Made by a program: the position numbers and the translations under genes. A stretch of DNA of 64,000 nt from contig OZ024756.1 in NCBI GenBank assembly GCA_964016885.1, forward strand, positions 28,892,001-28,956,000, given 5' to 3'. The stretch is from Eledone cirrhosa. Lineage: Eukaryota. This document shows, one piece after another, positions 7,101-27,065 of the stretch (positions are counted from its first letter, which is position 1; every line of letters begins with the position of its first letter). The notes under the pieces were generated by a model, which worked only from the letters and a program-made list of their open reading frames with translations, was not told where the DNA came from and ran no database searches.

Positions 7101-9129
7101 ATCACCAACTCCTTGTGGATAACTGATGGTTTGAAAAACAATAGTTTATTTTTATGACTGAATGACGCAGTCGAACCTTTTATACCCATTATTAAAAATA
7201 AAGGGTTGTGGATTGGCAGTATCGGTAGAGGGTAAGACGCCATGCTTTGCAGCATAGAGTTACGCCGCTTTACGGTTTGAGTTTAAATCCAGCTGAGGCT
7301 AACTTTGCCTTTCATCCTTACAGGGTCGATAAAATAAAGTACCAGTCACGCACTGGGGTGGATTTAATCGACTTTCTCCTCCCACCAAATCAGTGTCTAT
7401 ATAAGAAACCATTATCAAAAATATCGTTTGGAGATGTATTTTTTTATATTTTTAGATTTATATTTCAACTGCACACCTGCTCTTATTAACTTTATAAACT
7501 TTTGTAATGCTTATGATGATTCCAGCTAGGATGAAACGATCGTAAGTAATTAAATATATATATATATATATATATATATATATATATATATATATATACA
7601 CATATATACACACACACACACACACACACACATATATATATACATATATATACACACATATATATATATACATATATACATATATATATATATATATATA
7701 TATATACATATATACATATATATATATACATATATATATATATACATATATATATATATATACATATATATATATATATATACATATATATACATAAATA
7801 TATATATATATAAATATATATATATATACATATATACACATATATACACATATATATACATATACATATATATATATACATATATATACATATATATATA
7901 CATATATATATACATGTATATATATATACCTATATATATACATATATATATACACACATATATATACACATATATATATATACGCATATATATATATATA
8001 CATATATACATATATATATACATATATATATATACATATATACATATATATATATATATATACATATATATATATACATATATATATATATACATATATA
8101 TATATATATATATATATATATACATATACATATATATATATATACATAAATATATATATATATAAATATATATATATATATACATATATACACATATACA
8201 CATATATATATATATATACATATATATACATGTATATATATATACCTATATATATACATATATATATACACATATATATACACACATATATATATACGCA
8301 TATATATATATATATATATATATATATATATATATATATATATATATGTATATATGTGTATATATGTATATATATATATATTTATATATATATATATTTA
8401 TGTATATATATATGTATATATATATATATGTATATATATATATATATATGTATATATATATATATATATGTATATATGTATATATATATATATGTATATA
8501 TATATGTATATATATATATACATATATATAAGTTATTCCGTGTTGAAGCAGAGGTCACCACAGTAAGTAAGGTACTCAATACATAGCAGAGTATAAATGT
8601 TTTAATATAGAAGAGCTTCTACAGGACTAGAACTGTTTCATTCGTGAGAAATCATCATGATTTCTCACGAATGAAACAGTTCTAGTCCTGTAGAAGCTCT
8701 TCTATATTAATATATATATATATATAGAGAGAGAGAGAAGCAAAAGGGATATTCAATTTGTTGATAATTCAACAAATATAAATGTTTATAACTGATTCAA
8801 AGCACCCGACAATTTTTCTGGAGTATAATATTCAATGATATTAAATAAATGGAAACTATATTTATAAAATCATATTTATTCTATTATATATATTTCAAGG
8901 GTACCCTTGAAATATATATAATAGAATAAGTATGGTTTCATAAATATAGTTTCCATTTATTTAATATCATTGTGTGTGTATATATATATATATATATATA
9001 TATATTCATATTTTATATATTTTATATATTCATATTTTATTTTATATATATATATATATATATAAAATCAGTCTGTGAATGCATAAGTAAATATATATAT
9101 ATATATATATATATATATTCCCCTCTTTT

Positions 9130-9670
9130 TCTTAGTCTGGCTGTCTGCATTAGATAACGTTTTTCGAAATATTTACTTATGCATTCACAGACTGATTTTT
9201 TAAGTTCAGAAGATCCCGTTAAGGGTGAAAGCAGCGATTCTTTGCTTAAACTTTAAACTGTTATTTTAATATATATATTTGTGTACAGATAATTTTGCAT
9301 ACACAAAAACAAAAAGCTATTTAGTTCACGAAAGCACAGACAGCTTATCGTCATTGTTACTTTTCGAGGTTAGAGGACCACAGTCTTTCCAAGATCTGAG
9401 AACCATCAATGGCCATCAATGTTCCACTTACCGTTTGGCTTGCCAGAACAACCACCGCGAAAGTCTAGCTGAGGACCGCACACGCAGACACAATCCGAAC
9501 GTAACATACGATGTCGATTTCAATGAGGCGCTCATTTGTCTTGAAAACAGTGTCCTGGAGATTGGTGGTAGGCCTCTAAGTCACTACAGCTTACCTGCTC
9601 CTAACAGGAGTGTCCAGAGGTCAACGTCTACAGAGTTTCTCCGCGAGACGAGCTACGAGATCAATGATTC
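9130..9670 (+). mobile_element. Helitron fragment (RepHel relic)
   Basis: LLLFEVRGPQSFQDLRTINGHQCSTYRLAC and NEALICLE...GGRPLSHYSLPAP.R...EFLRETSY; 9130-9340 matches the interior of the 31171 element. Confidence 0.85.
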
Positions 9671-10056
9671 TTCCATGGTCACTTGTATGTAAGATGCTCT
9701 AGGGTGAGCTCGCCAAACAATGTTGTATACTCTGAGGCTCTAACAATGTAATTTAAATGTTTTCTGTTACTTGGAATTTCCATTATGGTTGTACAAATTA
9801 TTGTTTCTTAAAAATGTGTTTTCTGTTCAGCCTTTATTGTTGTAACTATCAACTTTCTTTAACGTACTGGCTGCTGAACTGGGGAATCCTAAAAACTATT
9901 CAAACCCAACATCAGAGGACGTTAACCCCCCCCCCCCTCGCTGACTTGAGAGGGCGTGCGGTATCTTTGCACTAGAGTGTAGGGGGGATTCCTGAAAAGA
10001 TAAAATGCTGGTATACCTAGCCAGGCATAAATACCACCATATTAATTTGGACAGTC

Positions 10057-10107
10057 AGCTTCCTGATGATCTTTCACGAATGAAACAGTTCTAGTCCTGT
10101 AGAAGCT
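10057..10107 (+). ncRNA. Type I hammerhead ribozyme (family A, Penelope-like terminal repeat)
   Basis: AGCTTC-CTGATGA-stem II-GAAA-CAG(ttctagtc)CTG-TA-GAAGCT. Confidence 0.85.
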
Positions 10108-10792
10108 TTTCTATATTAAACTTATATATATATATATATATATATATAGGAACGAGTCCTACTCGTTCCTATTACCCACTCTACTACCCTAAGTATTGAG
10201 TACTTTGGTGCGTTATGGTCCACCTGGTTCCTTACCACATTTCTTCCGTTATATATATATATATATATATATATATATATATATATATATATATATATAT
10301 ATATATATATATATATATATATATATATATATATATACGTATATATACATGTATATATACATATATATATATTTAAAGAATATACCAATACCTTCTAAGG
10401 ATGAATTCTTACTTCTTATGATACAAAAAAACAACCAATTCATCAAAAGGGTCAGATGGAGGACCTACCACTTTGATAAAAAAACAAAATGTACTGATAA
10501 GAAATATTTATATGATTTCACTACATATAAGAACCCACCACACAACTCCTTGCTTGAAAACTTCGAGAAAGACCTTTTTAACTTAATCACTTTTCATTCA
10601 AAATACTCTTTCCATTCAAAACTGAAGTCTGCATTCCTCTACCCCTAAATTAAATTTCTACTACTACTATTCTATCAACTTGACCACTTACTACTTTTCT
10701 ATTGGTCAATTCAAAACCTGTTCCCAAACAGACCTATTATATTAAATCTTTGTTGGTTTTTTTCAATAAACAAATATCATTATTTCTGAAGA

Positions 10793-10976
10793 GGGCGGTG
10801 GATTGATAGTATCGGTAGAGGGTCGGACGCCATGTTTCCAGCATAGTTACCTCCCTTTACGATCTGAGTTCAAATCCCGCCGACGTTAACTTTGCCTTTC
10901 ATCCTTACGGGGTCGATAAAATAAAGTACCAGTAATGCACTGGGTATTTTCTGACCTTGTGCCTAAAGTAGAAACA
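10793..10976 (+). mobile_element. tRNA-derived SINE (about 185 bp, MetaSINE-like core) with 14-bp TSD
   Basis: A box TGRYAGTATCGG, B box GAGTTCAAATCC, core GCCTTTCATCCTTACGGGGTCGATAAAATAAAGTACCAG; TSD ATTATTTCTGAAGA. Other singletons near 2733-2922(+), 4918-5110(-), 7203-7385(+), 20229-20415(-), 30378-30735, 55848-56037(+). Confidence 0.88.
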
Positions 10977-24845: not shown

Positions 24846-25061
24846 AATATATTTTACTCTGCCATGTATTGAGTACCTTACTTACTGTGGTTATCCCCGA
24901 CTCAACCCGGGACCTACGTATATATATATATATATATGCAAAAGTTCTATTTAAATTGTTGGGATACAACATGCAAATATTATTATAACTGATATAAAGC
25001 ACTCGACAAATATTTGAAAGGGTACGTCAATATCTATTTGTAAGACTGTTATATATTGTAT

Positions 25062-25120
25062 TTTGTCTGATGAAGGCATACCATGATTTAACTTGGTGTC
25101 CTTGAAATATATATAATGAA
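25062..25120 (+). ncRNA. Hammerhead (family C); other copies at 40805-40865 (+) and 36445-36504 (-)
   Basis: CTGATGA / CTGAAGA / CTGAGGA in the three copies, then a stem II hairpin and GAAATATATATA. Confidence 0.6.
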
Positions 25121-25537
25121 ATAAATATGGTTTTATAAATATAGTTTCCATTTATTAATATTGTATATATATATATATAAATATATAATATATATATATA
25201 TATATATATATATGTGTGTGTGTGTGTGTGTGTGTGAGTATTTATTCACACCTGTCCTATTATACTCCACCTCCACCACCACCACTCACGCACTGCAAGG
25301 CAACATAGCACACATATTTACCATTCAAGAAAACACACCTTCACTCATTTGCTGAGATGGCTGACCCAGAACTGTATAACATCAACAACAACAACAACAA
25401 TGCTAGCAATATATCTGTAGTATTATTATTACTACCTATTCGATCGACATTTTTGTTAGAAATAGCAGCCAAACGTCCCTCAAATCACACCGTGTTGTCT
25501 TTAAAAAAATCCTTTAAAAAAACAAAAAAACTGATAT

Positions 25538-26117
25538 AATTGTTTCTACTTTAGGCACAAGGCCAGCAATTACCCAGTGCATTACTGGTACTTTATTTTA
25601 TCGACCCCGTAAGGATGAAAGGCAAAGTTAACCTCGGCGGGATTTGAACTCAGAATGGCAAGGGCCGTAACTCTATCGTCCGACCCTCTACCAATACTGC
25701 CAATCCACCGCCCTATAAAGTAATAATAATTGTTTATACTTTTGGCACAAGGCCAGCAATTATCCCAGTGCATTACTGGTACTTTATTTTATCGACCCCG
25801 TAAGGATGAAAGGCAAAGTCAACCTCGGCGGGATTTGAACTCAGATCGTAAAGGGCCGTAACTCTTTGCTGCAAAGCGTGGCGTCAGACCCTCTACCGAT
25901 ACTGCCAATCCACCGCCCTATAAAGTAATAATAATTGTTTCTACTTTAGGCACAAGGCCAGCAATTACCCAGTGCATTACTGGTACTTTATTTTATCGAC
26001 CCCGTAAGGATGAAAGGCAAAGTCAACCTCGGCGGGATTTGAACTCAGATCGTAAAGGGACGTAACTATGCTGGAAAGCATGGCGTCCGACCCTCTACCG
26101 ATACTGCCAATCCACCG
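25538..26117 (-). mobile_element. Three head-to-tail SINE copies
   Basis: About 197-bp period, same family as 10793. Confidence 0.9.
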
Positions 26118-26929
26118 AAAGTAATAATAATGATATCAATCTAGAGAAGAGGCTCAAATGTCATATAGCTCAAGGCCTCAGCGGGTGAATGCCCAGCCCT
26201 CACTCGTCTACTTTCAAGTATGGAGTTGATAGAACTGGTACGAAATTGTTAAATGTTTCTATTGAATGTGATATGTCTCGTGAGAGGCTACAGAGTATTA
26301 ATTCAGTTGAAATGTGTATAGTGTAGGATGTGATGTTTTGAAACTGGTATTGTTCATAGATAATGGCAATACTGTAAAATATTATTTTTAGAGCTATTTA
26401 TTTATATATTTATTTTGTATATTTTTCTGTTATTCTGTTGTTGCTACGTCGCCATTGAAAGACAAAGAGTACTTCAAACCTGTATTTTCAATAATATGTA
26501 TGCTTAGATATATATTGAGTCGCCAAGTATGAACAAAAACGAACAAATTTCATACTTGACGACTCAATATTACTCTTTTACTCCTTACCTCTTCCAGCCA
26601 TCCGGCTGAGGCCATGCTGGGGCACCACCCTTCAAAATACCAAATACATACACACACACACATACACACACACATATATATATATATATATATATATATA
26701 TACAAGTAGAAGCTTAGTAAAATCGAAGCTTTGGCTGTGGCCAAGCAAAGTCGACCTACAATAAGGAATGAGCAGCAAAGCACTCAATAAGGGTAATTAG
26801 AGTAATAACATACGTTTAAATAGCTTGACAAATTGAAAATTGCGGTAGGCAAAACCCAACCATACAATACCAAAGTAACGAAAGAACTAATCAGGTTAAA
26901 AACAGATACATATATTACATATATATCAG

Positions 26930-27065
26930 GGCTTCCTGGTGATTTCTCCCGAATGAAACAGTTCTAGTCCTGTAGAAGCCTTTTCTATATTAAATATTTA
27001 TACTCTGCTTTGTATTGAGTACCTTACTTACTGTGGTTACTCCGATTGAACCCGGGATAAACTTA
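26930..27065 (+). mobile_element. Family A hammerhead element, core mutated (CTGGTGA)
   Basis: Same stems; shares the 3' body (..gtattgagtaccttacttactgtgg..) with copies near 8540-8710, 17830-17940 and 24845-24920. Confidence 0.75.

Follow-up and report, generated by a model that had tools for sequence, protein, structure and literature searches.

Do the small hammerhead ribozyme repeats found in part of the Eledone cirrhosa genome represent a mobile family in their own right, or are they the remains of longer elements? The question was raised by an earlier note on a stretch of 64,000 nucleotides (contig OZ024756.1 of assembly GCA_964016885.1, positions 28,892,001 to 28,956,000 of the forward strand; hereafter the window, within which all coordinates are counted). 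The note described type I hammerheads in short elements embedded in (TA)n, here called family A, and proposed a retrozyme-like, non-autonomous family mobilised by Penelope-like enzymes. We favor the second answer with good confidence: family A appears to consist of dead insertions, heavily truncated at the 5′ end, of a Penelope-like element (PLE) that probably belongs to, or lies near, the Hydra clade, and the genomic fragments are most likely inert. Family A is thus mostly ordinary and belongs to an already-known class of PLE hammerhead fragments. The PLE link is better supported than the note had argued (by 5′ truncation, end zones, fold-backs and (TA)n), and the retrozyme-like, non-autonomous label finds no support in the window, where head-to-tail units are absent and the 5′ ends vary.

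The window is AT-rich and laden with microsatellites, and its open reading frame (ORF) list consists in the main of microsatellite frames. Self-BLAST and nhmmer searches of the window, on which the counts of family A loci and arms are based, gave five loci with seven arms; the copies are 77–94% alike. Beyond these seven arms, nhmmer returned only two weak matches in the window, both to the tail of a neighboring repeat, family D. The loci are listed below, with plus-signed numbers giving the distance in nucleotides from the predicted cleavage site.

8531-8710, minus strand: copy A1, with its long, tailed arm on the minus strand (8655 to 8531)
8657-8710, plus strand: fold-back arm of A1, which stops at the short site
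10027-10122, plus strand: copy A2, hammerhead at 10057-10107, predicted cleavage site after 10101, helix II broken by a C·A mismatch
17824-17937, minus strand: copy A3, undamaged hammerhead at 17934-17884, GUC triplet, predicted cleavage site after 17890
24659-24918, plus strand: copy A4, a palindrome (24659-24845) plus a tail to +93
24781-24831, plus strand, and 24723-24673, minus strand: hammerheads of A4, the inverted arm stopping at the short site (+17)
26927-27063, plus strand: copy A5, hammerhead at 26930-26980, core CTGGTGA (A6 to G), predicted cleavage site after 26974

The 3′ ends fall into two zones about 70 nt apart, which delimit what is called the tail in PLEs. Microsatellite begins at +17, +17 and +21 in the short-end arms and at +89, +89 and +93 in the long-end arms. 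A2 lacks a tail and passes into (TA)n at the short site (+21), A5 has the full tail to +89 followed by (TA)n, and the tail of A3 is interrupted at +56 by (TG)n; (TA)n terminates the other six of the seven arms. The hammerhead therefore lies near the 3′ end, as it does in the pseudo-long-terminal-repeat (pLTR) of PLEs, with the predicted cleavage site 17–21 nt before the short end. Every copy spans that site, and the tail does not return into upstream sequence. The 5′ ends are variable. A2 has an uncertain 5′ limit, with homology to A4 from about 10027; the two share about 30 nt upstream of helix I (equalled in 9 of 1000 shuffles). A3 and A5 share a weaker and different upstream homology (equalled in 20 of 1000 shuffles), which may reach about 40 nt further 5′ in A3. 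This pairing of A2 with A4 and of A3 with A5 agrees with the two variants of helix I, and given the weak homology further upstream, a fixed 5′ end for A3 and A5 is unsupported.

Two of the five loci (A1 and A4) carry inverted arms, detected with a purpose-written palindrome script, and in both one arm is long and the other short. The hammerheads at 24673 and 24781, which the note had taken as two copies, are the arms of the single A4 palindrome. The arms of A1 are identical at 54/54 positions and those of A4 at 91/91, yet A1 and A4 agree at only 45/53 positions, which indicates that the inversion arose at insertion. All seven symmetric fold-backs in the window (two of family A, one of the neighboring family B and four of family D) combine one short arm with one tailed arm, and some D and B copies have diverged arms (47/54, 46/49, 52/54 and 62/65). 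If transcribed whole, A4 is predicted to fold into a single long hairpin of about -180 kcal/mol in which the ribozyme is hidden. A perfect palindrome with 138-bp arms also occupies 4450-4726; it is microsatellite-like and carries no recognised element motif.

Taken together, the variable 5′ ends, two 3′ end zones, inverted arms that stop short and (TA)n targets suggest that these copies are truncated PLE 3′ ends. PLEs are recognised by 5′ truncation, by a neighboring inverted copy that is itself 5′-truncated and by a tail confined to one end (PMC8557442), and family A displays all three. The partial tandem typical of the pLTR arrangement is seen at none of the five loci, all of which are short copies. 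The note had conceded that plain truncations of an already catalogued element would remove the novelty; truncations of a longer element, catalogued or not, indeed fit best.

The hammerhead motif itself is real. Its parts follow in the order stem I-CTGANGA-T-helix II-T-GAAACAG-8 nt-CTGT-H-stem I, with a helix I of 6–8 bp, a helix II made of a U·U pair, 3 bp and a 4-nt loop, and a helix III of ACAG/CTGT closed by an 8-nt loop. This family pattern, with up to one mismatch, has six matches in the window, and none of 100 dinucleotide shuffles gave any. Built independently of family A, a generic type I descriptor has seven matches (three in family A and four in family B) and none in 100 block shuffles. 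The cores reported in the note are correct in position and motif, as are its variable free core position N7 (T or A), its GUA or GUC triplet, the CTAG in loop III and the site predicted after 10101. Its description of them as intact holds for two of the five loci only (17884 and 24781). A type I core (CUGANGA / GAAA / UH) with three helices and an open helix I is found in A3 and A4 alone. The A2 motif at 10057, which had been counted as complete, is disrupted in helix II, where C and A are mismatched (C·A) next to the U·U pair, and fails the generic descriptor. A5 fails in the core, in agreement with the mutation noted at 26930, and A1 fails by its fold-back, the turning point of which lies inside the CTGATGA core so that the 5′ half of the hammerhead is missing, including C3 and the 5′ strand of stem I.

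Evidence for selection on the motif is limited. The covariation claimed for stem I exists as a change at a single pair (A-U in two copies and G-C in two), but its score is equalled in 85 of 500 shuffles and 18 of 20 pairs lack any compensating change. Variable columns are concentrated in loops and free positions (8/14, as against 5/37 in stems and core; Fisher p=0.003). This bias suggests past selection on the hammerhead in the source elements, though the evidence is modest because the structure was drawn from the same sequences. In energy predictions, which leave out tertiary contacts and Mg2+, the hammerhead is the minimum free energy fold of no copy; in A2 to A5, the four copies with both strands of stem I, it lies 2.3–7.8 kcal/mol above that minimum, and the pair probability of helix II is at most 0.16. 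Pairing of helix III between copies is far stronger than its hairpin (-12.8 to -15.2 versus -1.4 to -1.9 kcal/mol). Thus it is possible that the hammerhead would act as a dimer, and the partial tandems of PLEs would supply dimers too. The CTAG palindrome was not accepted as proof of dimer action due to the chance of a central 4-nt palindrome (about 1/16) and the likeness among copies.

Searches with the Rfam hammerhead models, which the note had proposed as a check, gave no match: none at the gathering threshold in the whole window, none at E<=10 in two short stretches (8 and 2 matches of other kinds) and none among the matches listed for 5000-32000 (150 of 365). The scan at wide E-values was dominated by (TA)n microRNA look-alikes. 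Since the ordinary PLE-type motifs of family B were missed as well, the models are insensitive here.

Among described elements, family A most resembles the Hydra-clade PLEs (2021, PMC8557442), among them Hydra-2_Amil, Hydra-2_Ajap, Hydra-1_Obim, Penelope-1_NV, Penelope-1/2_SK and Penelope-n_HM, which likewise have a type I hammerhead near the 3′ end, (TA)n targets and a presence in octopus. Two traits of the clade, a canonical hammerhead and insertion into (TA)n, are found in family A. By eye, File S2 of that paper has the U·U at the base of helix II in 14 of 25 Hydra-clade families and an ACAG/CTGT helix III, with A or C at the cleavage site as in family A, in 4 of 25; File S1 records a (TA)n preference in 26 of 27 members, one of them from O. 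bimaculoides. Membership of the Hydra clade is therefore likely, as judged from these motif and target comparisons. The clade is further defined by protein features, namely a C-terminal endonuclease (EN) without CCHH, DKT and RWK motifs, a CxCX5C linker and the phylogeny of the reverse transcriptase (RT) (PMC8557442). Family A differs in having no linked RT or EN gene in the window, an 8-nt loop III with central CTAG and a helix II of only 3 bp. Comparison by eye also sets it apart from the printed sequences of Hydra-1_Obim, Naiad_Obim, Naiad_Ovul and Naiad_Omin (PMC8557442). Identity with Hydra-1_Obim was rejected on that comparison, and a Naiad origin was rejected because Naiads lack canonical hammerheads and the printed Octopus Naiad ends are, by eye, unrelated. 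Two family A motifs have no match in the supplement of PMC8557442 as consulted, and a third has one, inside a Chlamys sequence. A prokaryotic genome scan with a family motif gave no match. No published account of family A was found in the literature searched, the coverage of which mostly excludes subscription papers.

The end pattern has a counterpart in the Poseidon PLE of Anolis carolinensis (PAc; Frangieh et al. 2024, PMC11167929). As in family A, the pLTR of PAc carries a hammerhead, two internal 3′ end points bound the tail, targets are AT-rich and insertions span the uncleaved ribozyme site. In vitro, the PAc tail lies between two internal start sites of reverse transcription, the uncleaved RNA is the RT substrate and the hammerhead requires the element's protein (PMC11167929). 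In PAc the hammerhead contains the start of the ORF and the tail belongs to the coding sequence, whereas no frame across the hammerhead and tail of family A had a protein match; the tail of family A, about 70 nt long, also sets it apart. The minimal and variant PLE hammerheads of Cervera and de la Pena 2014 (PMC4209133) are mostly single motifs from truncated copies with low activity, some forming close opposite-strand pairs (100–700 bp apart). Dimer action and low activity are expected for them, as for family A. Family A differs from that set in its full 4-bp helix III, long loop and short helix II, and in lacking the typical G10.1-C11.1 pair. PLEs make up 6.83% of the O. vulgaris genome in 190 families (PMC13282606); the supplement of that paper does not mention hammerheads.

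All four tailed copies of family A share a further feature, a bulged hairpin in the tail.

8574-8592, minus strand: tail hairpin of A1 (ACTC / 3 bp / 3-nt loop / TT bulge / GAGT)
17841-17859, minus strand: tail hairpin of A3
24856-24874, plus strand: tail hairpin of A4
27002-27020, plus strand: tail hairpin of A5

A descriptor written post hoc (RCTC, an inner stem of 3 bp or more, a 2-nt bulge, a paired GAGY-like strand, RC) matches the window perfectly ten times, while shuffled sequences average 0.21 matches (at most 2); with one mismatch allowed, the figures are 13 and 1.45. The ten comprise the four tailed A copies, three D copies, one B copy and two fragments on the minus strand (31167 and 26803); as these are repeat copies, they represent about five independent families rather than ten. 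The start of the hairpin lies at +28 to +31 (A), +26 to +28 (D) or +57 to +61 (B), about 5–14 nt beyond the short end of each family, and inner stems that vary by family still pair. By eye, it recurs in four of the six Hydra consensi of File S7 (PMC8557442; coral, sea cucumber, copepod): the 3′ tails of Hydra-2_Amil, Hydra-2_Ajap and, with one mismatch, Hydra-1_Crog contain it, and Hydra-1_Ajap has it at its extreme 5′ end. The hairpin is not seen in the printed Hydra-1_Obim and is unclear in Hydra-1_Amil. Three closing 8-mers have 16 matches in the supplement, three of which are these Hydra hairpins. Two results count against the hairpin: ViennaRNA forms the ACTC/GAGT helix in some tails only and other folds elsewhere, and none of its seven pairs varies within family A. 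We tentatively put forward the possibility that the PLE RT/endonuclease binds this structure (RCTC-stem-2-nt bulge-GAGY-RC) as a conserved signal in cis. No description of it was found in the literature searched, again with subscription papers mostly outside coverage.

If family A does derive from a PLE, the following course of events would account for it. The parent would encode an RT and a GIY-YIG nuclease and be transcribed from partial tandems elsewhere in the genome. The nuclease would open (TA)n, the observed target, and reverse transcription would start inside the RNA, uncleaved at the hammerhead as the copies span its site, at one of two positions, giving short and long ends. The two end zones are observed, and the two-start mechanism is suggested by analogy with the Anolis PLE (PMC11167929). 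Synthesis would stop early, and sometimes the new strand would fold back on itself and be recopied to the short site; such snap-back synthesis would produce the observed palindromes. The hammerhead would cut the tandem precursor RNA, probably weakly and aided by dimer formation or by the element's protein.

Several observations weigh against this reading or its clade assignment. Pfam searches of 300 of the 424 listed frames (all 217 of 50 aa or more and 83 of 207 shorter ones, with 14800-17300 left out) gave no PLE RT or GIY-YIG match, and a six-frame scan with 11 RT/GIY-YIG motifs gave two isolated short matches and no cluster, an absence to be expected if the copies are truncated. At about 70 nt, the tail exceeds the 30–40 bp quoted for PLEs (PMC8557442). 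The sample consists of only five loci, one of its seven arms (A3, +56) lies outside both end zones, and cleavage by the hammerhead is a prediction. U·U and ACAG/CTGT do not occur together in any of the 25 Hydra hammerheads listed, whose loop III measures 1–3 nt as against 8 nt in family A (PMC8557442). The U·U also occurs in the axolotl retrozyme hammerhead HHR_Amex2 (PMC7229834), a (TA)n preference is shared by all five cephalopod Naiads, and one of the 13 remaining 8-mer matches is likewise such a hairpin, in the 3′ untranslated region of Naiad_Mmer (PMC8557442).

Other origins must be weighed on the same evidence. Family A could be a short non-autonomous PLE derivative of about 135–200 nt, mobilised in trans as linear RNA from a master without an ORF. 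All five loci are indeed shorter than 260 bp and free of ORFs, A3 and A5 share a junction at which (TA)n directly precedes CAGGGCTTC, and putatively non-autonomous Chlamys PLEs have been noted (PMC8557442). We consider this unlikely, as the sequence shared by A2 and A4 extends 5′ of that junction and A3 and A5 have weak homology of their own further upstream, so that no fixed 5′ end is established; moreover, families B and D are equally short, which indicates heavy truncation in general. Metazoan non-LTR retrozymes (Cervera and de la Pena 2020, PMC7229834; Li et al. 2026, bioRxiv 10.64898/2026.07.22.740005) are similarly short, non-coding and related to PLEs, and dispersed monomers of such an element, spread as circular RNA from tandem hammerheads, would match family A in its type I hammerhead, small size, low GC and a helix III able to pair between copies. 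Retrozyme families do include dispersed monomers and have a PLE pLTR origin (Li et al. 2026, who sampled no mollusc), and an axolotl retrozyme is active despite carrying the U·U (PMC7229834). Retrozymes form tandem units of about 150–450 bp expressed as circles (PMC7229834), and active ones are defined by two or more consecutive units (Li et al. 2026). With none of the five loci head-to-tail and no tandem array covering any copy, that definition does not apply in the window. Nor are the ends circularly permuted, the 3′ ends falling instead in two zones followed by (TA)n, and fold-back inversions set family A further apart. A retrozyme origin is for these reasons highly improbable, although a tandem source elsewhere in the genome is conceivable.

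It is also conceivable that the repeats are real while the palindromes and some copy defects are sequencing or assembly artefacts, such as fold-back chimeras and indels. The perfect arms of A1 and A4, the 138-bp perfect palindrome without a PLE motif at 4450-4726, the frame break at 38361 in the first exon of a lipoxygenase gene and a 200-N gap in the window would all suit such an explanation. Chimeras are not expected to stop at family-specific short sites in 7/7 cases or to have diverged arms, as in some D and B copies, and the motif and the two end zones would be left unexplained. We give this explanation very little credence and retain truncated PLE insertions as the best account of family A.

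The window contains further hammerhead-related repeats. Family B (8738-8967, 24940-25161, 36317-36547, 40678-40906 and a variant at 60860-60930 on the minus strand) has an ordinary PLE-type hammerhead with a short palindromic helix III, the same end pattern and a related tail hairpin; its copies at 24940 and 40678 are asymmetric inversions. Family C (5392-5463, minus strand; 9196-9266 and 31525-31642, plus strand; fragment 5155-5197) is hammerhead-like, lies in (TA)n and ends 21–25 nt past the site. Since 3/3 complete copies have the core CAGAAGA (U4 to A), this may be an original trait of the family and not a result of decay. Family D has four fold-backs (27089-27275, 27296-27482, 32236-32429 and 44493-44686), all centered about 14–20 nt 5′ of GAAA, and a tail-only copy at 10149-10249. 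The CUGANGA half is missing in every copy, and two copies share the loop GACT in the sense of the element, which suggests snap-back at the natural helix II. The tail fragments at 31167 and 26803, both on the minus strand, consist of the bulged hairpin followed by (TA)n, that at 26803 lying inverted just upstream of A5.

Repeats of other kinds include a 204-bp unit in 2.9 tandem copies (25536-26117), which we take to be short interspersed nuclear element (SINE)-like, two opposed blocks of a 20-bp satellite next to the 200-N gap (15071-17187) and an imperfect hairpin repeat (26514-26572). A 140-aa frame at 9270-9692 (plus strand) is presumably Helitron Rep/helicase-like, and frames at 13424-13777 and 29017-29568 (both plus strand) presumably resemble the C-terminus of an RTE-type long interspersed nuclear element (LINE); none of the three has a Pfam match. 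The window also contains an allene oxide synthase-lipoxygenase gene of about 15 exons (38180-61969, plus strand), whose exon at 59611-59871 matched the proteins of Octopus sinensis (81%) and Argonauta hians (72%), with only three matches in all, which places the host among the octopods. The frame break in the first exon, near 38361, is either an assembly error or a sign of a pseudogene. Family A lies 11–30 kb upstream of its first coding exon.

Due to the abundance of PLE hammerhead fragments, which are already known, and to the share of PLEs in the O. vulgaris genome (about 7%), the identification of family A is mainly an annotation result. It adds a hammerhead variant with a U·U pair, a 3-bp helix II and an 8-nt palindromic loop III that is missed by Rfam. 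How PLEs set their two 3′ ends is described as an open mechanistic question (PMC8557442). If the tail hairpin is indeed such a signal, it would set the two start (or resolution) sites of reverse transcription and explain the long/short asymmetry of inverted insertions, and any RNA that carries it, for example a hammerhead-plus-tail mini such as A3 or A5, would be mobilised in trans. Found at a fixed distance from the short end in three local families and again in distant animals, the hairpin would offer a testable handle on the choice of 3′ ends by PLEs.

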